Both the position numbers and the translations under genes were made by a program. The notes under the pieces are model-generated. The model had not been told where the DNA came from. It worked only from the letters and a program-made list of their open reading frames with translations, and made no database searches. 64,000 nucleotides of DNA from Candidatus Levybacteria bacterium GW2011_GWA1_37_16 (lineage in GTDB: Bacteria; Patescibacteriota; Microgenomatia; Levybacterales; UBA12049): contig CALRGR010000002.1 of assembly GCA_943357985.1 (NCBI GenBank), forward strand, positions 306 through 64,305, written 5' to 3'. Shown one piece after another: positions 8,909-54,983 of the stretch. Every line of letters begins with the position of its first letter. Within the stretch, counting starts at the first letter, position 1.

Positions 8909-11077
8909 TTAAGGTGTTGGCGTTGGAGTAGCTTGATCCGGATGAGCGCAATTTACGCAGTATGTTCCGCCTCCCGGTTCTGTCACTAGGACTGATTCTT
9001 TTTCCTCAACATCTTCTGTCTGTCCAGCCTTTGCGGGTGTATTTGTTTTTTTATCAATGAAAATCTTTTGATTTCCAAGATCAGTCATCTTAGGCTCCGT
9101 TCCTTTTATGAAGTATTCAAATCTTGTAGGACAGCCGCTGTTGCCGGGTAAAAGTCCTGATATTGAGCAAATAGCTTTTTGAACAATATTAAATGATTTT
9201 TGAAACGGTTCAGCAGTCTTTTTTTCCAGCATGTGCGCCATTAAGACGTGCCAAATAGGAGCTGCCCCTGTAATTCCTGATACAAGTCCGCTCATAGGTT
9301 TATTGTCATTATTGCCTACCCAGACAACCACAACGTAAGAAGGCGTATATCCGATTGTCCAGTTATCTCTATAGTCATTTGTTGTTCCTGTTTTTACTGC
9401 AACAGGTAAATTGCCAATTCTAAGTGGAGAGTTTGTTCCAAATGCCATAGCGCGGGCGTCATTATCAGATAAGATGCTTGAAATTATATATGAAACGCCT
9501 TCCGGCAAAGCCTTTTTACCAAATATTGGAGAAGTCAAAGGTTTATATTCTTCCAAGGTTTTTCCCTTACTATCGGTAACTTTAATAATGGGATGTAAGT
9601 CAATTCTGTATCCTCCGTTTGCAAAGACGCCATAAGCTGTTGCCATATCAAGCATGGTAACCTCTCCCCCTCCTAGTGTTAGAGAAAGACCATAGCGGCT
9701 AGGATTTGTGAAAGTTGAAATTCCCATAGCCGAAGCAGTTGAAATCATAGACTGAGTGCCATTTAGCTTAAGCATTTTTACAGCCGGAATATTTATGGAG
9801 TTTGCAAGGGCAAATCTCATTTGGATTACTCCGCGAAATTTTCCATCATAATTTACAGGACAATATGGAGGCTCTCCAATATTCGGATAGCAAATCTTCT
9901 CATCTATAAAAGGCGTTGCTGCCGTGTAATTGTGTATCAAGCCCACAGCGTAGTTAATTGGTTTTATGGAGGAACCTGGCTGTCTGTATGCCAGGGCGAT
10001 ATTCACGTTTCCGTCAATTGTTGGAGAAAAGTAATCCGTACTCCCAACCATAGCTAATATCTCGCCTGTTTTGGGACTTGTTATTACCGCGGCACCATTT
10101 GAAGCGTTATATCTTTTAAGACTTGTAACTTCTGCCGAAACTGAAGCCTGCGCGTACTCTTGAAGTATTAAGTCAAGACTGGTTGTCACTTTAAGTCCGC
10201 CTTCCTCAACTACTTTTTGTCCATATTTTTTAACAAGTAAGTCTTTAACATATAAAACAAAATGTGGAGCTTTAATATTATTTGATAATTTTTGGAAGTT
10301 GAGTTTCTCTTTTAAAGCTTTTTCTTGTTCATCACGGGTTATGTATCCCTGCTCATACATATTTCTAATAACTTCCTCTTGTCTTTGTTTTGCCAATTCC
10401 GGATGTGCTCCAAATGGAGAGTAGGTGGTTGGTGCTTCTGGGAGTCCTGCAAGAAGTGCGCTTTCTGCAATATCTAGTTCTTGTACATGTTTTCCGAAAT
10501 ACATTTGAGATGCTGCTTCAACTCCATAGGCAGTTCCTCCATAGGGAACTTGATTTAGATACATTTCCAGAATCTTGCTTTTGGAGTAAACTGCTTCGGT
10601 TGCAAAAGAAAGTATCACTTCTTTTATTTTTCTTGTTATGGTTCGCTCCGGTGTAAGAAGGCTTGTTTTAACCAATTGTTGAGTTAGCGTTGAACCCCCT
10701 TGAAGCTGTTTTTTAAAAACAATTGAATAAGCCGCCCTTGCAATTCCTTTTATATCTATTGCCCCATGCTGATAAAAACTTCTGTCTTCTATAGCAATTG
10801 TTGCTTTCTGCATATATTTGGGTATTGAGTTCAAAGAAACAAAACTCTGATTTTTGTTGGCATAAATTGCGTAAAGAAGTTTTCCGTTTCTGTCATAAAT
10901 CTGAGTGGATTGGGGAATAGAGGAGCTTGCCAGCCTTGTAGGCGAAGGGATATCTTTAAAAATAAAAAGTAAAAAAGTAGCGGCAAATAGAATACCAAAA
11001 ACTGCAGGAATAGAATATCTTTTTTTTCTTATGAGCCTCTTAAAAACTTTTTTAAGCCCTTTTATATCTAATTTCAT
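8909..11077 (-). CDS. Second class A PBP (PBP1a paralog), in tandem with the preceding one
   Basis: Same architecture (IEDRSFYQHGAID...GGSTLTQQL...KTGT); paralogous to the 6637..8817 gene. Confidence 0.85.
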   Translation of the reverse strand: MKLDIKGLKKVFKRLIRKKRYSIPAVFGILFAATFLLFIFKDIPSPTRLASSSIPQSTQIYDRNGKLLYAIYANKNQSFVSLNSIPKYMQKATIAIEDRSFYQHGAIDIKGIARAAYSIVFKKQLQGGSTLTQQLVKTSLLTPERTITRKIKEVILSFATEAVYSKSKILEMYLNQVPYGGTAYGVEAASQMYFGKHVQELDIAESALLAGLPEAPTTYSPFGAHPELAKQRQEEVIRNMYEQGYITRDEQEKALKEKLNFQKLSNNIKAPHFVLYVKDLLVKKYGQKVVEEGGLKVTTSLDLILQEYAQASVSAEVTSLKRYNASNGAAVITSPKTGEILAMVGSTDYFSPTIDGNVNIALAYRQPGSSIKPINYAVGLIHNYTAATPFIDEKICYPNIGEPPYCPVNYDGKFRGVIQMRFALANSINIPAVKMLKLNGTQSMISTASAMGISTFTNPSRYGLSLTLGGGEVTMLDMATAYGVFANGGYRIDLHPIIKVTDSKGKTLEEYKPLTSPIFGKKALPEGVSYIISSILSDNDARAMAFGTNSPLRIGNLPVAVKTGTTNDYRDNWTIGYTPSYVVVVWVGNNDNKPMSGLVSGITGAAPIWHVLMAHMLEKKTAEPFQKSFNIVQKAICSISGLLPGNSGCPTRFEYFIKGTEPKMTDLGNQKIFIDKKTNTPAKAGQTEDVEEKESVLVTEPGGGTYCVNCAHPDQATPTPTP

Positions 11078-28234: not shown

Positions 28235-28780
28235 ATGCCAATTTATACAAGAACAGGAGACAAAGGTAAAACGGGCCTTTTTAATGGAAAAAGAGTTTAT
28301 AAAGATAGCCTCGTAATAGAAGCAGTAGGTTCCGTTGATGAATTAAATGCCGTGCTGGGCTTGGCCGCATCAAAAGTATCGAGTATTAAGTATTCAGTAG
28401 CAAGTATAAAAAAGGAATTGCAAGAAATTCAAAGTGATTTATTTGTTATTGGAGCTAATTTAGCAAATCCAAAATCAGCCTCAAAAATAGATTCTATCAA
28501 GCGGGCAAAAGAGTTTGAAAAACTGATCGATGACATGACAAGGCAACTCCCAAGACTCATGAACTTTATCTTGCCGGGCGGGGGGGAAGCAGGCGCAGCT
28601 TTGCATTTGGCAAGAACAGTTTCCAGACGAGCGGAAAGAAGAATAGTTAGTCTTTCTAAAAAAACTAAACTCGATTCAGGCATTTTAATCTATGTAAATA
28701 GACTATCTGACCTGCTTTTTACAATGGCCCGCTTTGTAAATTTGCTTGATAAGAAAAAGGAGACAATCTGGCGTGGCTAA
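28235..28780 (+). CDS. PduO-type ATP:cob(I)alamin adenosyltransferase
   Basis: MPIYTRTGDKGKTGLFNGKRVYKDSLVIEAVGSVDELNAVLG is a typical PduO/MMAB N-terminus. Confidence 0.8.
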   Translation: MPIYTRTGDKGKTGLFNGKRVYKDSLVIEAVGSVDELNAVLGLAASKVSSIKYSVASIKKELQEIQSDLFVIGANLANPKSASKIDSIKRAKEFEKLIDDMTRQLPRLMNFILPGGGEAGAALHLARTVSRRAERRIVSLSKKTKLDSGILIYVNRLSDLLFTMARFVNLLDKKKETIWRG

Positions 28781-29825
28781 AGAAGCATTTAGTGTAGGAC
28801 TGGAAGCAGCAGCATATCATAGAAAGCCTTTTGAAGGAGAACCTACGGAGGTTTTTGCAGCAAGGGAACAAGAGGCAAGAAATAATATGCTTAGGTACTT
28901 GGGAGAGTATAGGTTAGCTGTAAAATTTGATGAAATTTTTTATCAAGAAGGACAAAATTCCAGTGGTGAAAGGTTCCTTAGAGCAAAAGAAAATGCACCT
29001 GTCAGGGATATATTTAGAAATTTTATCAGACAAAAAGAAATAGACGGGCAAAGCTCAAAAAGGGAAGTTGCAGAGTGTTTAGGATTTGAAAAAGTTGAGG
29101 AGAAGTTTTTAGCAGGAGAAGATTTTCTTTTTCTTTGGATTTCTCCTCCGGGGGCAAAAGAGGATGGATACGGTGATTATAGCTTCACATTTGTAGGAGA
29201 GGTTAGAAATGGACAAATAAGGGAAATTCCTTATAGAAATAAACTTCAGCTTGAAGAACATAGGGAGATTATAAGATTGTTTTCGAATCAGGCGGATAGC
29301 TTCCAAATAGATGTTGACTTTCTGGCAAATCCTATATTTATCCCAAAAACAAAAAGTAGAAATTCCGCAGAAGATATTCTTGCAGAAATTGGCGAAAAAG
29401 AAGCTATTGATATTTCTTGGAAAAGTCGGCTGGAAACAAGGCTTGCCAGTCTAATGGATATTTTTATTGATGCGGTAAAAAGGAATGCGCCCGAGCATGA
29501 ACTTAATAAAATAAAAAGAGCAATAGAAAATTTTACAATAAATAAAAAGAATGAAATTGTTTCAGGAGAATTTACTCATTATGATTTGAACACTAAGAAT
29601 TTGATAGATACTTATGGAAGCTATGCTCCTCCTGTTGTTGGGGGGAGTTGTGGTAATTCTTCATCCAGTACTCTTATGGAATTTCAGCAGGAATTTAATC
29701 TGGAACCAGATAAGTATGGAGACAGAAAATTTGACTGTCCGCAGTGTGGAGAGACAAATGTAAGGCCAAAAGATCAACTTCTTACAAAATGTCAACATTG
29801 TGGCAGCAAAAAGGTAGCCTGTTAA
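28746..29825 (+). CDS. Hypothetical protein with a C-terminal zinc ribbon (CPQCG...CQHCG); start uncertain (may be MLRYL at ~28887)
   Basis: ORF track; no recognisable family; C-terminal CxxC-x17-CxxC. Confidence 0.4.
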   Translation: MIRKRRQSGVAKEAFSVGLEAAAYHRKPFEGEPTEVFAAREQEARNNMLRYLGEYRLAVKFDEIFYQEGQNSSGERFLRAKENAPVRDIFRNFIRQKEIDGQSSKREVAECLGFEKVEEKFLAGEDFLFLWISPPGAKEDGYGDYSFTFVGEVRNGQIREIPYRNKLQLEEHREIIRLFSNQADSFQIDVDFLANPIFIPKTKSRNSAEDILAEIGEKEAIDISWKSRLETRLASLMDIFIDAVKRNAPEHELNKIKRAIENFTINKKNEIVSGEFTHYDLNTKNLIDTYGSYAPPVVGGSCGNSSSSTLMEFQQEFNLEPDKYGDRKFDCPQCGETNVRPKDQLLTKCQHCGSKKVAC

Positions 29826-29890
29826 CCGTTAGTCTTTTGTGAGGCTTTTATAATGACACGCTTGGCATTGCGTGATATGATGAATGCATT

Positions 29891-30331
29891 ATGAATCCTA
29901 CTGCCGATCCGGTTCAAGCAGTCCCAAATATTCAGACTGATCCATCCATAATCCTAGCATCTCCTATTCTCCCAGTTCCTGTTGTGTCTGGTTCTGGTGT
30001 GCATAAGGAGGAAGGCCCTGTAATTTCGTTTGCAAGTTCAGCAGAAACAGTTCCTATGATAAGTAAAGAGCTTGGAGAGATAGGAATCAAGACGCCTGTC
30101 CAGCATGATAATCCAAATTTGACAGTTGAGCATAATCAGGTAGGAATGACTATTTCTCCTTCAGCCCAGCCTGTTCCGGTGAAGCTTTCGGAAAATCCAT
30201 TTACTATGACTCCAGCACAAGCAAAATTTGAACAGAAAGGTTCTATAGAAAATTCTAGTTCATGGCTTGCAAAATTGTGGAATAAATTTTTTACACCTAA
30301 GCCACAAGTAATGAAAGGAGGATTGTCTTAA
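29891..30331 (+). CDS. Hypothetical Pro/Val-rich small protein, translationally coupled (ATGA) to the downstream ATPase
   Basis: ORF track; overlaps the start of the 30331 gene. Confidence 0.3.
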   Translation: MNPTADPVQAVPNIQTDPSIILASPILPVPVVSGSGVHKEEGPVISFASSAETVPMISKELGEIGIKTPVQHDNPNLTVEHNQVGMTISPSAQPVPVKLSENPFTMTPAQAKFEQKGSIENSSSWLAKLWNKFFTPKPQVMKGGLS

Positions 30332-32712
30332 TGAATCCGGTATCATTTTCCTTAGATAGTCTTGTTCAGTTTTTGACGGCCTTTTTAATAGGCCTTGCTC
30401 TTTCTATAGTTTTAGTAGGTCTTGCGGCTTTAGGAGTTTATCTACTTAGTGTCTGGTATAGAAATAGAGAAAGAGAGAAGTATTCTTTGGACTCAACTCT
30501 TCTTCAGGTTTCCCTAGCGCGGGACAATGAGATAAAAATAGATGCAGCAGAACAGCTTTTCTCTTCTCTTGCATCATTTAGAAAAAGCGGAAGGTTTTCT
30601 TTTTTGCATCTTCAGCCGCACATTTCTTTTGAAATAGTAGGAATGCCTGCCGATATAAGGTTTTATATATACGTTCCTAATAAACTTAAGGACTTTGTAG
30701 AAAAGCAAATAAACGGAGCATATCCTGATGCTGAGATAAAAACTGTAGAAGAAAAATCTTCAATGAGAGAAGGTTATACAGTAGGAAATGAATACAATAT
30801 TTTTTCAAAAGAAGGAAAGGTAGCTTTTGCCAGCTTAAAGCTTAAAAAGTCTGATTATATGCCAATTAAAGTTTATAAAGATTTGGCTACAGATCCACTC
30901 TCTTCAATTACTTCAGTACTTGCCAAAATGACAGAAGGAGAGGGAGCAGCAATTCAAATTTTAATTTCTCCTGCTGAGGGAAAATGGAAGAAATTTGGAC
31001 GGACACATCTTTCCAAAGTTAAAAAAGCAGAAGCAAATCCGGAAACAGCAAAATATTCGGCAGATCCTAAGGAGCTTGAAGGAATCGAGAATAAAATCGG
31101 GAAATCAGGCTTTGATACCGTAGTTAGAATTGTTGTCAGCTCAAGCACAAAAGAGGCAGCGGATGCTCATCTGGGAAATATAGTGAACGCTTTTAATCAG
31201 TTTTCCGGAGCAAATTCCTTTACAAAAAATAAATTAAGACTTAAAGGAATGTTTATGGCTGATTTTATCTATAGATATCTTCCAATGAGAAAAGGGCAGA
31301 CTTCGGTTCTTTCAAGTGAAGAATTGGCAACTGTTTTCCATCTTCCAAATAAGTCTGTTGCAACTCCTCATATTTTCTGGGTAAGTTCAAAAAGAGCGCC
31401 GGCCCCCTCCCAAATCCCCGATCATGGTCTTTTTCTTGGGAGAAGTACCTATAGGGGCCTTTCTAAGCCCGTCCATATAGACATAGATGATAGGCGCAGA
31501 CACATGTATATTATTGGAAAAACAGGAACTGGAAAATCTGAGTTTCTTAAGGCTATGATAATGCAGGATATTAATAATGGCGAAGGTCTTGCTGTTATTG
31601 ATCCGCATGGAGATTTAATTGATGACATTTTACAGCTTATTCCTTCAAATAGGGCAGAAGATGTTATTTTATTTGATCCATCAGATACAACCCGTCCGAT
31701 GGGTTTTAATATGCTAGAAGCCTCAACGGAGGAGCAAAAGCATTATGTTGTAACCTCAATCATCGGCCTCATGTATAAACTTTTTGACCCAAACAAAACC
31801 GGAATTATCGGGCCTCGCTTTGAGCATGCTATAAGAAACGCAATGCTAACGGTTATGTATGATCCAGGAGCTACTTTTATTGAAGTTGTAAGAGTTTTAA
31901 CAGATGCAAATTTTGTACAGGAACTTTTGCCAAAAGTCCAAGATCCAATTATTAGGAGATACTGGACAGACCAGATAGCACAAACTAGTGATTTCCATAA
32001 GTCTGAAGTGCTAGATTACATTGTTTCTAAATTTGGCCGTTTTGTTACAAATAAAATGATAAGAAATATCATTGGTCAATCTTATAGTTCTTTTAACTTC
32101 AGGCAGGTAATGGATGAGAAGAAAATTTTACTTGTTAATCTTTCAAAAGGAAAAATTGGGGAAGAGAATTCAAATTTCTTGGGGCTAATACTTGTTCCTA
32201 AAATTCTAATTGCTGCAATGAGCCGTCAAGATGTGCCACAAGACCAGAGAAAAGACTTCTTTTTATACGTTGATGAGTTCCAAAACTTTGCAACTCCTGA
32301 CTTTGCTCAAATACTTTCCGAAGCCCGAAAATACAGACTTAATTTAATTGTTGCAAACCAGTTTGTTGGACAAATGGATGAGGAAGTGAAAAATGCTATA
32401 TTTGGAAATGTTGGAACGGTTGCCTCTTTTAGAGTTGGAGTTACGGATGCAAACTATCTGCAGCATGAATTCCAGCCAACGTTTACAGAAGCAGATCTTA
32501 TAAATATTGACAGATTTAATACTTATATTAAAACTATTGTTGGAGGGGAGCCTGTGCCGCCTTTCTCTATGGATTTAACACGCGATATGACAGCAGAAAA
32601 AGCAATGGCAAATCCAAGAATTGCCGAGCTTATAAAAGAACTTTCACGTCTAAAATATGGACGCGATGCGATTCAGATTGAAGCAGAAATAGGGCAGCGC
32701 GCAAAGCTTTAG
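30331..32712 (+). CDS. Membrane-anchored FtsK/HerA-superfamily P-loop ATPase, TraD/VirD4 (T4SS coupling-protein)-like
   Basis: N-terminal TM segment, a ~350-aa N-domain, then Walker A IIGKTGTGKSEF, VIDPHGDL, Walker B LYVDEFQNF, and an ARKYRLNLIVANQ...VKNAIFGNVGTVASFRV C-terminal pattern shared by T4CP and FtsK motors. Confidence 0.6.
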   Translation: MNPVSFSLDSLVQFLTAFLIGLALSIVLVGLAALGVYLLSVWYRNREREKYSLDSTLLQVSLARDNEIKIDAAEQLFSSLASFRKSGRFSFLHLQPHISFEIVGMPADIRFYIYVPNKLKDFVEKQINGAYPDAEIKTVEEKSSMREGYTVGNEYNIFSKEGKVAFASLKLKKSDYMPIKVYKDLATDPLSSITSVLAKMTEGEGAAIQILISPAEGKWKKFGRTHLSKVKKAEANPETAKYSADPKELEGIENKIGKSGFDTVVRIVVSSSTKEAADAHLGNIVNAFNQFSGANSFTKNKLRLKGMFMADFIYRYLPMRKGQTSVLSSEELATVFHLPNKSVATPHIFWVSSKRAPAPSQIPDHGLFLGRSTYRGLSKPVHIDIDDRRRHMYIIGKTGTGKSEFLKAMIMQDINNGEGLAVIDPHGDLIDDILQLIPSNRAEDVILFDPSDTTRPMGFNMLEASTEEQKHYVVTSIIGLMYKLFDPNKTGIIGPRFEHAIRNAMLTVMYDPGATFIEVVRVLTDANFVQELLPKVQDPIIRRYWTDQIAQTSDFHKSEVLDYIVSKFGRFVTNKMIRNIIGQSYSSFNFRQVMDEKKILLVNLSKGKIGEENSNFLGLILVPKILIAAMSRQDVPQDQRKDFFLYVDEFQNFATPDFAQILSEARKYRLNLIVANQFVGQMDEEVKNAIFGNVGTVASFRVGVTDANYLQHEFQPTFTEADLINIDRFNTYIKTIVGGEPVPPFSMDLTRDMTAEKAMANPRIAELIKELSRLKYGRDAIQIEAEIGQRAKL

Positions 32713-32754: not shown

Positions 32755-32826
32755 GGGTGCGTAGCTCAGTGGTAGAGCGCTACTCTTATAAAGTAGATGT
32801 CCTTGGTCCGATCCCAAGCGCACCCA
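32755..32826 (+). tRNA. tRNA-Ile (anticodon UAU)
   Basis: Hand-folded cloverleaf. Acceptor GGGTGCG/CGCACCC, D-arm GCTC-AGTGGTA-GAGC, anticodon stem CTACT/AGTAG with loop CTTATAA, T-arm CTTGG-TCCGATC-CCAAG, discriminator A. Confidence 0.7.
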
Positions 32827-32828
32827 CA

Positions 32829-34043
32829 ATGATTTTTGTCCCCAGATTTATTAAAACCTCTGCCCTTAAGTTAACGCGTGATAGAGGATACGTCCTCAAT
32901 AAATTTTTGCTGCATACTTTTCCCAAAGGTTATCCACAAGTACAAACTGTAATTATCTTGAAAAACAAACCGGAGAAAGATGATGTAAATATTTCAAGAA
33001 GGCTTTTGAAAGCATATAAGCTGGCAAAAGCTACTGATGAAGTTAAAAAGCCTGTCTTGCTCGTCTCGCTGCGAAGCGGGCCTGCAGGCAGGGAGAAGGA
33101 TATTTGGACAGATTTAGCTATGTCTGACCATAGAGAATTTATAGAAGTTTTGGAAAGTGATGATCCAAAACTTCTTGCCAATTATTTATTTGGTGTTCAC
33201 GCAAGAGGAATTTCTCAGGGACTTGTGCAGGGGGAAAAAGAATATGAAAAAATCCGTGCCTCTCAAATTTTTAGAAGGTTTTTAGGAGTTAATACTAAAG
33301 ATAAGCTTATATCTTTAGCAGAATATTTGGGAGTTTTGTCTTATGAGAATCCGGAACAGGGAAGAAATGGCGAAAACATTTACAAGAATGTAAATAAAAT
33401 AGTTTCTGAAATTGAGAAAAAACTTGGTTTTGAAATTACAACTGCAGATTTTGAAAACGCTCTTTTGAAGCTGAAACTTAAAAAAGGCTCGATTCATATA
33501 CGTGATATTTATGCACTTTATACAGCTTTTCGTTTGGCCGAAATAGCAGGCAAAAAAGCAAAGGTGGCAGAAATTGGCGGAGGAGTTGGAAAAGCAGCTT
33601 ACTATGCTTACAAATTAGGAATTGCCGATTACAGCATTTTTGATTTGCCATATATAAATGTTTTGCAAGGATATTTTTTACTTAAAACCTTACCTATTGG
33701 TTCGATTTCTCTTTTTGGGGAAAAAGAAAAAGCTATAAAGATTTTGCCGGACTTTGAATTCTCAAAAGTGGCAAAAAACAGGTTTGATATAGCTTTAAAT
33801 TCTGATTCTTTCCCAGAGATAAATAAAAAGATAGTTAAGAAATATCTATCTGATATTAAAAAGAATACGAAGAAATATTTACTAAGCATAAATCAAGAAG
33901 GGGAGAGTAGCTTTGCCGCCATAAAACAATCTGTTGTCGGCAAAATCATTTCTGAAATTGGTGGATTTAAGAGAGAATACAGGTTTCCATTTTGGGTAAG
34001 AAAAGGTTATATTGAAGAGCTTTATAGTATAATTAAAGTATGA
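32829..34043 (+). CDS. Hypothetical protein, possibly a Rossmann-fold methyltransferase (AEIGGGVGKAAYYA); start uncertain because the ORF track starts it inside the tRNA
   Basis: ORF track; glycine-rich Rossmann-like motif. Confidence 0.35.
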   Translation: MIFVPRFIKTSALKLTRDRGYVLNKFLLHTFPKGYPQVQTVIILKNKPEKDDVNISRRLLKAYKLAKATDEVKKPVLLVSLRSGPAGREKDIWTDLAMSDHREFIEVLESDDPKLLANYLFGVHARGISQGLVQGEKEYEKIRASQIFRRFLGVNTKDKLISLAEYLGVLSYENPEQGRNGENIYKNVNKIVSEIEKKLGFEITTADFENALLKLKLKKGSIHIRDIYALYTAFRLAEIAGKKAKVAEIGGGVGKAAYYAYKLGIADYSIFDLPYINVLQGYFLLKTLPIGSISLFGEKEKAIKILPDFEFSKVAKNRFDIALNSDSFPEINKKIVKKYLSDIKKNTKKYLLSINQEGESSFAAIKQSVVGKIISEIGGFKREYRFPFWVRKGYIEELYSIIKV

Positions 34044-34736: not shown

Positions 34737-35597
34737 TTATAGTTCGGACATTATTGCGGTTTCTTTTGCTCTGTCAGGAACAAAATCAAGATATCTTTCG
34801 GTTGTTGAGAGTCTTTTATGGCCCAAAAGCTTGGAAAGTAAGACCAAAGAAATGCCGTGGCGCAAGTGATGTGCAACAAAAGTGTGCCTTAAATCATTTA
34901 CTTTGGCGTTTTTAATTTCCGCAATTCTAAAGTAGCGCTCAATTGCAGTTCTAATATTTCTAACCAAGAATGATTTTCCTGACTTGGTCACAAAAAGCGG
35001 CCCGCTTTCAATCTTGGGTCTAATTTCAAGATAGCGTCTTAAAGCCTCACGGGAACGGGCATTGAGAGGAACATCTCTTTCTTCATGTTTTTCAACTGCT
35101 GGAATATGAAGAGAATCTTTTTTAACATCTTCCATTTTTAAAGCTGCAAGTTCTCCAATTCTAATTCCTGTTTGAAGTAAGATCTCAATAATGGCATACA
35201 TTCTGGCATCATTTTGAGCCGCATCTCTTAGTGCTCTATATTCCGTAGGAGTTAAAATTCTAGGTGGAGCTAAGTGATATTGTGGATGATCAACTAAAAG
35301 AGAAGGGTCGTCTGTTATATATTCATTGATTTTCAAAAACCTATAGAAAGTACGGGTGGAATTGAGCTTTCTTGAGATTGATTTAGCTGTGTAACCGTTT
35401 TTGCTCATTGAGGCTAAAAAGGCATCAATGTCTTCTTTATCTACTTCATGAATATGGTTCTTTTTAAGCTCATTTAAGAACGTTACAAGCTGTTCCACAT
35501 CCTTACCGTATGCTACAATAGTAGCACTTGAGTTTTTGTTGCCTTTAAGATAATTTCTGAACTCTTCATTTGCGTCCGAAAGCTTTATGATTTTCAT
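34737..35597 (-). CDS. Tyrosine site-specific recombinase (XerC/XerD-like); start taken at MKIIKL
   Basis: C-terminal catalytic region ...LRHTFVAHHLRHGISLVLLSKLLGHKRLSTTERYLDF (R..H..R..Y). The first 20 codons in the ORF track come from a repeat element. Confidence 0.8.
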   Translation of the reverse strand: MKIIKLSDANEEFRNYLKGNKNSSATIVAYGKDVEQLVTFLNELKKNHIHEVDKEDIDAFLASMSKNGYTAKSISRKLNSTRTFYRFLKINEYITDDPSLLVDHPQYHLAPPRILTPTEYRALRDAAQNDARMYAIIEILLQTGIRIGELAALKMEDVKKDSLHIPAVEKHEERDVPLNARSREALRRYLEIRPKIESGPLFVTKSGKSFLVRNIRTAIERYFRIAEIKNAKVNDLRHTFVAHHLRHGISLVLLSKLLGHKRLSTTERYLDFVPDRAKETAIMSEL

Positions 35598-35712: not shown

Positions 35713-36054
35713 ATGAAAAGAATTATATTCGCAATTTTAGTTTTCAGCTTAAGCTTAGTAATCGTTGGTCTTGCCCGTTCAATATATGACCTTTGGAAAA
35801 AGCAAGATTTGGTTATTTCTTATCAAAAACAGCTTGTAAAACAGAAAAATGAGAATCAGACACTAAAACAAAAGCTTTCATTAACAAATAACCCTAAATT
35901 TGTAGAACAGCAGGCAAGAGACAATCTTTTCCTGTCAAAACCGGGGGAACAGAATATACTTATTCCCAGCGGGCTTCTTATAAGTAGTAGTTCCGCAAGG
36001 CCTATAGAAGACCTAATTCCAAATTGGAAGAAATGGTGGAACCTGTTTTTCTAG
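35713..36054 (+). CDS. Septum formation initiator (FtsB/DivIC family)
   Basis: N-terminal TM helix, coiled-coil, then FVEQQARDNLFLSKPGEQNILIP, a DivIC-like motif. Confidence 0.6.
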   Translation: MKRIIFAILVFSLSLVIVGLARSIYDLWKKQDLVISYQKQLVKQKNENQTLKQKLSLTNNPKFVEQQARDNLFLSKPGEQNILIPSGLLISSSSARPIEDLIPNWKKWWNLFF

Positions 36055-36296
36055 AATTTCAAATTTAAAACTTTTATTTTCTTAGTCTTATCCCAGCCCT
36101 TAATTTGGCTTTCTCTTTTTAAAGCTTCAGATTGGGAACTAAGCTCCTCTAGGTAAACTTTCTTAATAGGTTTATGAGATCTTGTGTATCTTCCACCCTT
36201 GCCGTTTTTATGGTCGGAAAATCTTCTGTCTGGATTGTTCGAGGAGCCAGTATAAAGACTTCCGTCTGAACACAAAAGTATATAAACAAACCACAT
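36051..36296 (-). CDS. GIY-YIG (URI-domain) nuclease, UPF0213-like; start taken at MWFVYILLC
   Basis: FVYILLCSDGSLYTGSSNNPDRRFSDHKNG...YTRSHKP is the GIY-YIG motif. Confidence 0.7.
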   Translation of the reverse strand: MWFVYILLCSDGSLYTGSSNNPDRRFSDHKNGKGGRYTRSHKPIKKVYLEELSSQSEALKRESQIKGWDKTKKIKVLNLKF

Positions 36297-36742
36297 AGAA
36301 AAGTGCTTGCACTGAACTGAGCGAAGCAATGAAATCGCACTTGCCCTTCGACGCGATTTTCGCATGTGCTCAAGTCTTGCTCAGGACACTTCATCTGTGC
36401 TTCGCCCAGCTGAAGTGTTGCGGGGCTGGGAGTTGGACCCAGCCTACAAGATTATGCAATCTGTTTCTCCGGTTACCCAGAGTGTCGGACTATATCATCA
36501 TCCTTGATAAATCTAGGATGTTCAGCGTATAGTCTCTACGGGGTCAATCTCGATTAAATCGGGACGACTTCCCTCGGTATTGCCCTTTGTCTAGGGTTTC
36601 ACCGATATAGCTAAATTCTCTTTTATACGTTGCCGTATAAAGGGCCCATTTTTGAGCCTCGTGTGCACCGTACACTACCCCGCGCGTTTGAACATTATAC
36701 AATTTGATTTAAGGCTCGTCAACCTGATAAAATAGGTGGCAA

Positions 36743-53672: not shown

Positions 53673-54983
53673 GTGGAATTTGTAACAGATTTACATTTGC
53701 ATAGTAAATACTCCAGGGCTGTTTCTCCAAGCATGACGCTTCCTTTTATGGCTGCGTGGGCAGTAAAAAAGGGAATAGATGTTTTGTCAGCAACGGATTT
53801 TACACATCCATTGTGGTTTAAGGAAATTAAAGCTTTGCTAGAAGAAGATGGGGAAGGAGTTTATAAACTAAAAAATATCGATAACAAGACGAAATTTATG
53901 CTTTCAACAGAAATTGCGAGCATTTTTAAGCAAGGAGAAAAACTAAGAAGAATTCATAATTTATTGTTTGCGCCAAATTTAGAAATCGCTGAAAAAATTA
54001 ACAAAGAATTAATAAGAAGAGGTTGTAATATTGCGTCTGACGGTAGACCGATTGTTGGCCTTTCCTCAAAACAGCTTTTGGAAATGGCGCTGTCTATTGA
54101 CAAAAAAGTCATTCTTATTCCGTGTCACGTCTGGACACCTCACTTTGGACTTTACGGTTCTGCAAGCGGCTTTGATACTATAGAGGAAGCATTTGGCGAT
54201 CTCTCAAAATACATCTACGGAATTGAAACGGGAATTTCCTCTGATCCTTTTATGAATTGGCAGATTCCTGAGCTTGAAAAGCGCGCAATACTTTCTTTTT
54301 CCGATGCTCATTCTGCCCCAAAAATGGGAAGAGAAGCAACGGTTTTTAAATTGCCAAAATTATCATATTCTGAATTTGGAAAAGCCCTTGCAATGCTAGA
54401 TGAAGAATCAAAAGTTTCTCATACGATTGAATTTTATCCTGAAGAAGGGAAATATCATTACACCGGACACAGGAATTGTGGAGTTTCTCTTTCCCCAAAA
54501 GATGTAAAAGAAAAAGGAGCAATTTGTCCTGTTTGCAAAAGAAAATTAATAGAGGGAGTAATGTTTAGAGTCCAGCAGGTTGCAGGCCGTGAGGTTTCAA
54601 CCGATGAGCCGATTCCTCAACCGGATGAAAATGGAGTCAATTGGATAAAAGATCCAAAAAATATTCATCCTCCTTTTGTAAAACTTGTACCACTTCTTGA
54701 AATTGTTGCCGAAGGTCTTGACTCGACGACCTCGTCTGAAAAAGTAAAGATGCTTTTTGATAAATTATGCGATGAACTCGGCTCAGAACTTAAAGTATTG
54801 TTAAAAACTCCGCTGGATGACATAAAAAGAGTTGGGGGAGAGAGAGTTGCCGAGGGAGTTTTGAAAGTAAGACGTGGAGATATCTCAATTACGCCCGGAT
54901 TTGATGGTGAATATGGAAAAGTTGCAATATGGTCCGCCTCGTCCGGCGAGCGGGCGAGTCGAGACGGGTCCGATAAAATTTAA
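53673..54983 (+). CDS. PHP-domain protein with an internal Zn ribbon; endonuclease Q-like (TIGR00375-type), putative
   Basis: N-terminal DLHLHSKYS (a PHP motif), CPVCKRK Zn-binding segment, ~436 aa like EndoQ; lies next to the DNA ligase. Confidence 0.45.
   Translation: MEFVTDLHLHSKYSRAVSPSMTLPFMAAWAVKKGIDVLSATDFTHPLWFKEIKALLEEDGEGVYKLKNIDNKTKFMLSTEIASIFKQGEKLRRIHNLLFAPNLEIAEKINKELIRRGCNIASDGRPIVGLSSKQLLEMALSIDKKVILIPCHVWTPHFGLYGSASGFDTIEEAFGDLSKYIYGIETGISSDPFMNWQIPELEKRAILSFSDAHSAPKMGREATVFKLPKLSYSEFGKALAMLDEESKVSHTIEFYPEEGKYHYTGHRNCGVSLSPKDVKEKGAICPVCKRKLIEGVMFRVQQVAGREVSTDEPIPQPDENGVNWIKDPKNIHPPFVKLVPLLEIVAEGLDSTTSSEKVKMLFDKLCDELGSELKVLLKTPLDDIKRVGGERVAEGVLKVRRGDISITPGFDGEYGKVAIWSASSGERASRDGSDKI

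Follow-up and report, generated by a model that had tools for sequence, protein, structure and literature searches.

The DNA analyzed here is a 64,000-nucleotide (nt) stretch, hereafter the window, from Candidatus Levybacteria bacterium GW2011_GWA1_37_16, a member of the candidate phyla radiation (CPR; Patescibacteria), and the subject is the gene of a membrane-anchored ATPase together with the two genes that precede it. We regard this, with high confidence, as a conserved core locus carrying a motor like those of type IV secretion system (T4SS) coupling proteins (T4CPs), and not as an island. Three co-oriented open reading frames (ORFs) are read on the forward strand at 28746..29825, 29891..30331 and 30331..32712, which bears out the three coupled genes of a preliminary description of this DNA made from its letters. 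The genes and the elements within and between them are given here by position in the window.

28773..29825, forward strand: gene of the Zn-ribbon ('SPPG-GSCG') protein, 350 amino acids (aa) from GTG 28773, between pduO and the small ORF.
29736..29801, forward strand: predicted C-terminal Zn ribbon of that protein, CPQC-x14-CQHC (Cys322, 325, 340 and 343 in the 350-aa numbering).
29853..29881, forward strand: promoter-like ATGACA-17-TATGAT with extended TG, from a consensus scan whose number of sites equals the chance expectation, so that it counts as weak.
29891..30331, forward strand: gene of the small partner protein, 146 aa.
30315..30322, forward strand: putative Shine-Dalgarno sequence of the ATPase, AAAGGAGG, read directly within the 3' end of the small ORF.
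30331..32712, forward strand: gene of the ATPase, 793 aa.

The first gene had been described as a 359-aa ORF from 28746, a TTG, that overlaps the pduO stop. The overlap stands with either start, but the start itself and the length probably do not: GTG 28773 is the most likely start because an AAGGAG Shine-Dalgarno motif lies at 28758-28763, 9 nt upstream, and because P0121, a database protein of identical sequence, has 350 aa, as do the other close homologues. From this start the overlap with the pduO stop at 28780 is 8 nt. The small-ORF stop and the ATPase start share one nucleotide as TAATG at 30329-30333, not as the ATGA reported before, and this overlap and the internal AAAGGAGG together make a classical translational-coupling arrangement. 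The promoter-like site at 29853..29881 could be a separate promoter of the small ORF and the ATPase. Given the homologues of the ATPase and of the Zn-ribbon protein, and the conserved position and motif of the small ORF with its dN/dS, all three are real genes and not chance ORFs.

The ATPase is predicted to consist of one transmembrane helix, then a domain called DUF8128, then a P-loop motor of the T4CP (VirD4/TraG/TraD) type, with the following parts.

30352..30456, forward strand: single N-terminal hydrophobic helix (~aa 8-42) followed by basic RNREREK, from a hydropathy scan; helix 8-53 in the model.
30493..31365, forward strand: N-domain, ~aa 55-345, alpha/beta, DUF8128 from precomputed Pfam on close homologues and from the model.
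31423..32574, forward strand: RecA-like motor, ~aa 365-748, from the conservation profile, the model and the TrwB alignment.
31516-31539, forward strand: Walker A GKTGTGKS, within the motor.
31729-32115, forward strand: all-helical insertion, ~aa 467-595, between strands 445-448 and 599-603 of the model.
32272-32283, forward strand: Walker B DEFQ, within the motor.
32590..32703, forward strand: conserved C-terminal helical tail LSRLKYGR...IE.EI..R, three helices at 754-791 of the model.

Most of what had been said of this protein from its letters was upheld. The membrane-anchored 'FtsK/TraD/VirD4-like' ATPase falls in the FtsK/HerA superfamily and is of the T4SS-coupling-protein type; its transmembrane anchor corresponds, by hydropathy and in the model, to one hydrophobic N-terminal helix at about aa 8-42; its N-domain 'of unknown type' is an uncharacterized domain of about 300 aa that Pfam calls DUF8128; and Walker A GKTGTGKS, VIDPHGDL, DEFQNF and ARKYRLNLIVANQ are all present and mostly invariant in a 57-sequence alignment, where the invariant columns include G396, G401, K402, D648, E649, K667 and Q677. 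Following the positive-inside rule, the protein is predicted to be anchored by the N-terminal helix with the remainder in the cytoplasm. We infer membership in DUF8128 (PF26449) from the precomputed assignment on homologues 77-97% identical over the full length, and no separate structural match to the N-domain was found.

Three Pfam models score above their gathering thresholds (DUF87, TrwB_AAD_bind and TraG-D_C), the best NCBIfam match is VirD4-like CD1115 (E 7e-16, aa 376-697; 58 bits against a cut-off of 250), and the closest solved structures by sequence are TrwB and DotL. An AlphaFold2 model built on a diverse alignment (pLDDT 89) gave structural match values of 30.0 for the VirB4 C-terminal domain (CTD), 28.1 for the DptH/DndH C-domain, 26.9 for TrwB, 25.5 for HerA, 23.2 for DotL, 22.7 for Cag-beta and 17.5 for FtsK, which place the protein in the VirB4/VirD4/HerA branch; TrwB aligns over 363 of 420 residues, more than its nucleotide-binding domain (NBD) alone. 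Within that branch the sequence profiles appear to favor the coupling-protein side over VirB4. The motor has the P-loop NBD of the FtsK/HerA superfamily with Walker A and Walker B, and the all-alpha insertion in the NBD that marks T4CPs; a helical insertion also occurs in VirB4-CTD, so this feature does not exclude VirB4. The ATPase lacks, however, the VirB4 N-terminal domain that goes with the C-terminal ATPase of that family, and it has neither the HAS-barrel N-domain nor the adjacent nuclease or effector partner expected of HerA-NurA helicase/nuclease pairs and HerA defense systems. Nor is it the cell's FtsK, because no gamma domain was matched by Pfam (the C-terminus is the short helical tail), because the FtsK_SpoIIIE Pfam score is below cut-off, FtsK not being the closest family, and because the structural match to FtsK is poorer.

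The family is large, with more than 6,500 homologues and 6,268 clusters at 50% identity with E<1e-30, and its loci were found in Microgenomates, Dojkabacteria, WWE3, Saccharibacteria, Berkelbacteria and many Parcubacteria. Close homologues carry the NCBI names 'type IV secretion system DNA-binding domain-containing protein', 'DUF87 domain-containing protein' and 'TraM recognition domain-containing protein'. Long members (1,000-2,000 aa) have only TPR repeats or nothing recognized in addition, and the TPR-fused form, with a motor about 50% identical, is found in an organism with a non-CPR, metabolic gene context. A CPR-type locus was also seen in genomes titled 'uncultured Gammaproteobacteria', 'Bathyarchaeia', 'Limisphaerales' and 'Methylomirabilota' (L004, L006, L009-L011, L013, L030, L049 and others); because the gene content around the match is CPR-like, these titles look wrong or the bins contaminated.

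We analyzed 82 loci, the window included; 79 were taken from the 80 returned by a scan with one genome per species, and three had been fetched earlier. The unit kept across CPR is the small upstream ORF with the ATPase, and not the three-gene module of the preliminary description: the comparison of neighborhoods shows that the trio is not kept as one unit and that the Zn-ribbon gene is lineage-restricted. In 67 of the 82 loci the ATPase is immediately preceded by a co-oriented ORF, typically of 100-190 aa, counting any such ORF whose end falls within -40 to +200 nt of the ATPase start. A jackhmmer search from the 146-aa protein gathered the adjacent ORFs of 20 loci, mostly from Microgenomates, and also the N-termini of the ATPase ORFs of L041 (913 aa) and L037 (846 aa), which are fusions in which the small domain replaces the transmembrane helix and is followed by the conserved ...D.E....AAE.LF... 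start of DUF8128. The small protein has a net basic C-terminal motif, V.LP.T..E...G......S.rWLa.w..R..KK, and a variable, Pro/Gln-rich N-terminal half that is probably disordered. It has only two database matches at the sequence level, and the earlier remark that the two upstream proteins match no recognized family holds in that no characterized family was matched for either.

The Parcubacteria ATPase is flanked by CysRS, a ~210-aa gene and DnaX. The ~210-aa gene, which is conserved, co-oriented and without a Pfam match, lies directly downstream of the ATPase in 15 loci (Parcubacteria, e.g., L052 and L054) and may be a further lineage-specific partner; DnaX is found downstream in 11 loci, directly after the ~210-aa gene in L052 and L054.

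The Zn-ribbon protein has 132 homologues, all of them in CPR and none with a Pfam domain. The alignment gives the ribbon as CPQCG-x13-CQHCG, correcting the x17 spacing first reported, and its four cysteines are invariant or nearly so in 53 sequences, although Zn-ribbon Pfam models match it only weakly. Further conserved motifs (YLGEYR, RE.AE, W.SPPG, GYGDY, R155, EN and GSC293) are scattered with these cysteines along the chain, so the protein looks like an enzyme or a specific binding protein. The structure search that the preliminary description had suggested for it, run with a confident model, returned no known fold from PDB or BFVD. Members of this family adjoin the ATPase in every locus examined: the gene is directly upstream in the window, L001, L003, L004, L006, L008, L097-L099 and L101-L103, and on the opposite strand in L018 and L026, and members only 25-31% identical still occupy the same slot. 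The slot is empty in L005, L016 and L024, and the slot proteins of L009 and L011 (632 and 662 aa) were considered as family members and rejected as unrelated genes. Because the slot is empty or otherwise filled in these relatives, the Zn-ribbon gene is an accessory member limited to part of Microgenomates.

The two upstream genes vary far more than the motor. Compared with the window's proteins, ATPases of relatives are 74-97% identical, Zn-ribbon proteins 20-70% and small proteins 25-76%, and among five relatives the values are distributed as follows.

L101: ATPase 97%, PduO 86%, small protein 76%, Zn-ribbon protein 20%.
L102: ATPase 90%, PduO 77%, small protein 36%, Zn-ribbon protein 70%.
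L103: ATPase 78%, PduO 57%, small protein 27%, Zn-ribbon protein 62%.
L001: ATPase 80%, PduO 64%, small protein 35%, Zn-ribbon protein 42%.
L003: ATPase 78%, PduO 57%, small protein 30%, Zn-ribbon protein 25%.
28772..29970, no strand assigned: segment without nucleotide similarity to L101 by blastn; similarity ends at 28771 and resumes at 29971.

The flanks of that segment are 86.5% identical to L101 on the pduO side and 93.8% identical over the rest of the small ORF and the ATPase, and relative to L101, the closest relative, the segment reads as a replaced allelic cassette. The slot protein of L101 is a true Zn-ribbon family member (E 1e-35) despite its 20% identity to that of the window, and its nearest allele is in L099 (48%), although the L099 ATPase is only 79% identical to that of L101. 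Against L102, the Zn-ribbon gene is collinear and the entire small ORF (29860-30366) is without nucleotide similarity detectable by blastn. The partner genes thus behave as deeply divergent alleles, each of which can be replaced without the other while the flanks are conserved. In degree of conservation the motor equals NrdR and NrdJ, and the dN/dS values against L101 are 0.06 (ATPase), 0.19 (PduO) and 0.46 (small ORF). That the partners are exchanged and the motor is conserved suggests that the partners face a changing counterpart (host cell, phage or transported cargo) while the motor does not.

The surroundings of these genes are themselves conserved. The features downstream of the ATPase are listed first.

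32755..32827, forward strand: tRNA-Ile(UAU), from ARAGORN and Rfam.
32898-34043, forward strand: NanM-like sugar O-methyltransferase (TIGR04371, E 9e-15), between tRNA-Ile and PIG-L.
34737..35597, reverse strand: Xer-type tyrosine recombinase, 286 aa from ATG 35597, convergent with the ATPase; Pfam Phage_integrase and Phage_int_SAM_1.

These agree with what had been described downstream, namely a tRNA-Ile (now placed at 32755-32827 with anticodon UAU), a methyltransferase-like/LmbE-deacetylase pair and a minus-strand tyrosine recombinase, the last three through domain matches, which confirmed the PIG-L/LmbE deacetylase gene. Many Levybacteria and other Microgenomates share the order nrdR-nrdJ-pduO-[Zn-ribbon gene]-[small gene]-ATPase-tRNA-Ile(UAU)-(PIG-L)-Xer-DivIC. 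In two relatives, whose ATPases are 78-80% identical, the series is nrdR-nrdJ-pduO, a gene of ~360-450 aa, a gene of ~140 aa, the ATPase, tRNA-Ile(UAU), (PIG-L), Xer and DivIC, with MurD further on, and the gene order of the window was also found in L001, L003, L097-L099, L102 and L103. Over all loci, Xer is downstream of the ATPase and always convergent in 23 of 82, usually followed by DivIC, which is itself downstream in 15; upstream, nrdJ neighbors the ATPase in 13 and pduO in 12. About 30 related loci have tRNA-Ile(UAU) after the ATPase, among them some labeled Dojkabacteria or Saccharibacteria in which the ATPase is only 43-48% identical. The tRNA is thus a syntenic neighbor of the ATPase and not an attachment site, and the recombinase is a syntenic Xer-type gene, with a XerC/D-type domain pair, grouped with DivIC and MurD.

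The preliminary description had taken the nearby tRNA and recombinase as possible marks of the remnant or core of an integrated element, and had proposed that a direct repeat of the tRNA-Ile 3' end be sought at both flanks. Searching the 64-kb window for this end (26 nt, up to 3 mismatches) gave the tRNA itself as the sole match, a direct-repeat search of 24-40 kb of the window gave nothing meaningful, G+C content stayed at 0.36-0.40 throughout the region with no shift, and the GC skew kept a constant sign over the whole 64 kb. Given the conserved synteny, the lack of a tRNA repeat and the flat G+C, that view is not supported: the locus belongs to the chromosome of a Levybacteria-type CPR bacterium, is inherited vertically and is not an integrated element. 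Of the two findings that had been named as counting against an unusual module, a locus conserved in relatives and an ATPase that is the organism's ordinary FtsK, the first was made and the second was not.

Some variation at this locus was recorded alongside. The NanM-like gene is missing from that position in the other 81 of the 82 loci, it is shared with L102, a relative with a 90% identical ATPase, and it is a small lineage-specific insertion at a tRNA-flanked spot, the sole lineage-specific piece. L101 has two extra genes, DUF4430 and DUF6580, between nrdJ and pduO (L101 248-1122) that the window lacks (~28226), and L103 has an ABC transporter inserted between the same two genes; the nrdJ-pduO junction is therefore another variable spot. 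In L099 a BrnT/CopG-type toxin-antitoxin pair (10051-10597) comes straight after the ATPase in place of tRNA, PIG-L and Xer. In most bacteria AUA is read by a tRNA-Ile of the CAU (lysidine) type and not by a UAU anticodon. Because tRNA-Ile(UAU) keeps its place immediately behind the ATPase stop across classes, and mostly on the strand of the ATPase, it may be transcribed together with the ATPase operon.

The remaining window is ordinary CPR chromosome, with genes for two class A penicillin-binding proteins, FtsH, a class I (Trp/Tyr-type) tRNA synthetase, MurD and an ATP-dependent DNA ligase, beside which a 436-aa ORF (53673-54983, forward strand) has no Pfam match at E<=1e-5. A tRNA-Leu(CAA) at 36417-36684 on the reverse strand has its anticodon loop split by a group I intron of ~198 nt (36466-36664; Rfam RF00028, 84.6 bits, E 1e-20), which ARAGORN found only with introns allowed and missed by default. 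Just downstream on the same strand, a GIY-YIG ORF (36051-36365) could be the associated homing-endonuclease-type gene.

Genes of this kind are already on record in number. A survey of Patescibacteria reported 5,713 VirD4-like T4CP homologues in 2,918 of 3,035 genomes (96%), only 148 of them near virB4, with VirB4 itself in 2,417 genomes; it left the function of the orphan homologues open and suggested exaptation (Quinonero-Coronel et al. 2025, PMC12102498). The ATPase very likely belongs to these orphan T4CP homologues, which are likewise chromosomal, not next to virB4, near-universal in CPR and found with T4CP profiles, whereas the survey describes neither an architecture with DUF8128 nor a coupled small ORF, a Zn-ribbon gene or the hypervariability of these. 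DUF8128 has no mention in the searchable literature; the same is true of the hypervariability of the partners and of the two-gene anatomy, the gene family itself being on record as uncharacterized.

With TrwB of R388, VirD4, TraD and TraG the ATPase shares the P-loop motor with its all-helical insertion and the N-terminal membrane anchor. Classical T4CPs usually carry two transmembrane helices, whereas this one has a single helix, an extra ~290-aa DUF8128 between anchor and motor, no relaxase or T4SS genes nearby and a housekeeping-like conservation. H. pylori Cag-beta (Cag5) with its small regulator CagZ and the Legionella DotL coupling complex differ in that they lie inside T4SS loci; no relation in sequence or fold of the partners here to CagZ or the Dot proteins was seen, no search aimed at one having been made. 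The L041 and L037 fusions recall VirB3, a small protein encoded beside virB4 and in some systems fused to VirB4 (PMC12102498), in that a small partner is next to or joined to the ATPase; here, however, the ATPase is without the VirB4 N-terminal domain, full-length TrwK aligns over the motor only, and the small partner of the window's class is not a membrane protein. VirD4-like proteins of phages (phage G gp156, those of SPO1-like phages and D6E ORF23), with functions likewise unassigned, align from residue ~95 to ~737, including part of the N-domain, but are only 18-23% identical and have a phage context, ORF23 of D6E lying between a partition gene and an integrase.

We consider it probable that the ATPase does housekeeping work as a translocase or coupling motor of the membrane, with adaptors or substrates that evolve fast as its partners. 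TrwB, VirB4 and HerA suggest by analogy that it would assemble into a ring, usually hexameric, at the cytoplasmic side of the membrane, where NTP hydrolysis would drive the handing over or pumping of a macromolecular substrate, for which a nucleic acid or a protein-nucleic acid complex would be the likeliest candidate and an unfolded protein the second likeliest. The small protein would bind at or next to the N-terminus of the motor, which is the site of fusion in two lineages, as adaptor, regulator or substrate, and in some Microgenomates the third, upstream gene would contribute a Zn-ribbon protein of the cytoplasm, whose fold is an orphan and whose conserved residues resemble those of an enzyme. 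The likeliest setting would be the chromosomal Patescibacteria T4SS, which has no assigned coupling protein. We infer the oligomeric state, the topology, the substrate and the choice between a link to the T4SS and a stand-alone working of the motor.

Several points weigh against this account. The 64-kb window and the examined flanks (+/-6 kb) contain no T4SS gene, and neither a VirB4-size ATPase nor a relaxase was seen among the large ORFs of the window or in the flanks of the 82 loci. T4CP-like genes are distributed more widely than VirB4, all named NCBIfam T4CP models score the motor far below their curated cut-offs, and the motor fold alone does not set a T4CP apart from VirB4-CTD, DptH or HerA. 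The upstream ORFs of Parcubacteria and Saccharibacteria make up three or more other classes, in which homology to the class of the window was not detectable; hhalign linked the window type (class A) to the Dojkabacteria/Woesebacteria type, with 80% probability over the C-terminal motif, and to no other class. Outside Microgenomates and Dojkabacteria the upstream partner is therefore conserved in position only. The divergence of the small protein could also stem in part from low-complexity, disordered sequence instead of selection. Finally, the searchable literature holds no experiment on the DUF8128 ATPase family, and the T4CP homologue of S. epibionticum, perhaps the DUF8128 orthologue, is reported to be non-essential by transposon sequencing (Tn-seq) while the T4SS genes are essential (PMC12102498); the original Tn-seq paper describes the T4SS as one without a recognizable coupling protein (PMC10633639).

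As to how such a translocase would be employed, that it acts as the coupling ATPase of the CPR T4SS is a tentative proposal which we find somewhat doubtful. That the motor handles DNA or RNA independently of a T4SS, as its persistent neighbors Xer, DnaX and NrdJ suggest, is to our minds rather unlikely, and so, a little more clearly, is a further version in which the near-universal CPR motor is the fixed engine of a host-interaction or conflict device whose specificity lies in the two recombining upstream cassette genes. In that version the cassette products, replaced by recombination between close relatives, could for instance pass as cargo or adaptors through the essential T4SS of Patescibacteria, or gate it; another possibility is that they belong to a route for importing host nucleic acid beside the ribonucleotide reductase (RNR) unit.

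A related explanation makes import the main task, with the ATPase pulling host or environmental DNA or RNA inward for nucleotide salvage in connection with NrdR-NrdJ-PduO. Patescibacteria are without de novo nucleotide synthesis, and ComEC-dependent competence is dispensable for growth, so that another nucleotide route is expected (PMC12102498, PMC12857230); host RNA uptake of unknown mechanism is reported in a 2026 preprint (10.64898/2026.06.21.733656). The 13 loci with adjacent nrdJ include one from a distant lineage, L053, and there are weak matches to CedB and CedD, ATPases of archaeal DNA import. Those matches, however, cover the P-loop only, the adjacency of the RNR genes is mostly a feature of Microgenomates and could simply reflect synteny, and the neighborhood encodes no channel protein; we judge this explanation improbable.

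We hold it equally improbable that the ATPase is an FtsK analogue, i.e., a septal DNA translocase of CPR that works with the adjacent Xer in chromosome dimer resolution and segregation. Like FtsK/SpoIIIE with XerCD, it is a membrane-anchored member of the FtsK/HerA superfamily next to a Xer-type recombinase, which is its most persistent protein-coding neighbor, convergent, in 23 loci and is retained even by lineages that have lost the upstream nrdJ-pduO synteny and whose ATPases show only 43-48% identity; DivIC and MurD are next door, and the neighbors elsewhere, DnaX and NrdJ, are also DNA-metabolism genes. However, the gamma domain and the multi-pass N-domain of FtsK are both absent, the FtsK_SpoIIIE score is sub-threshold, and the loci of Parcubacteria, like most of those of Saccharibacteria, do not have Xer next to the ATPase. 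The GC skew switches nowhere in the window, so the locus does not lie at a terminus, and an inverted-repeat scan (terminus/dif) of the intergenic gaps around tRNA and Xer found trivial hairpins only. TM7x, moreover, carries a gene annotated as ftsK (PMC10768705).

Anti-phage defense, in which a conserved HerA/DptH/MADS-like motor would serve hypervariable sensor or effector partners, seems still less probable. It would fit the exchange of the partners as cassettes, as is often seen in genes of conflict systems, and the PADLOC mad8 match (E 1.6e-17) with weak ones to HerA and DndH. But the PADLOC match is restricted to the generic ATPase core, profile library scans detected no nuclease, Sir2, methylase or other effector domain in either partner, and such systems are patchy and lie in variable islands, whereas this motor is near-universal in CPR, syntenic and, at a dN/dS of 0.06, under strong purifying selection.

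To the remnant or core of an integrative and conjugative element, an integrative and mobilizable element or a prophage at tRNA-Ile we give almost no credence: a T4CP-type ATPase close to a tRNA and a tyrosine recombinase, a strong match to phrog_5156 (E 2e-96) and the distant homologues in Bacillus and Geobacillus phages speak for it, but the locus and its flanks are syntenic over many genera and classes, the window has no att-like repeats or composition shift, the ATPase is conserved to the same degree as NrdR and NrdJ, and no relaxase, VirB4, capsid or terminase gene is nearby. A phage origin was likewise rejected, as INPHARED gives only distant homologues (18-23% identity, in Bacillus and related hosts) and 2.9 million IMG/VR contigs hold merely 12 weak matches.

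Patescibacteria make up a large share of bacterial diversity and are host-dependent, and little is known of how macromolecules pass through their envelope. In the one species tested the T4SS is essential, and no coupling protein has been tied to it, while orphan T4CP-like genes are almost universal among them. The locus described here supplies an orphan T4CP family with an anatomy, namely one transmembrane helix, DUF8128, the motor and a coupled, sometimes fused, small partner, and with a testable clue, in that the ATPase, which is among the best conserved proteins of its neighborhood, adjoins two genes exchanged as divergent alleles. Should the partners prove to be cargo, adaptors or specificity factors, host range and conflict in CPR would become approachable through them; if they do not, a false 'mobile element' call has still been removed from a core locus.

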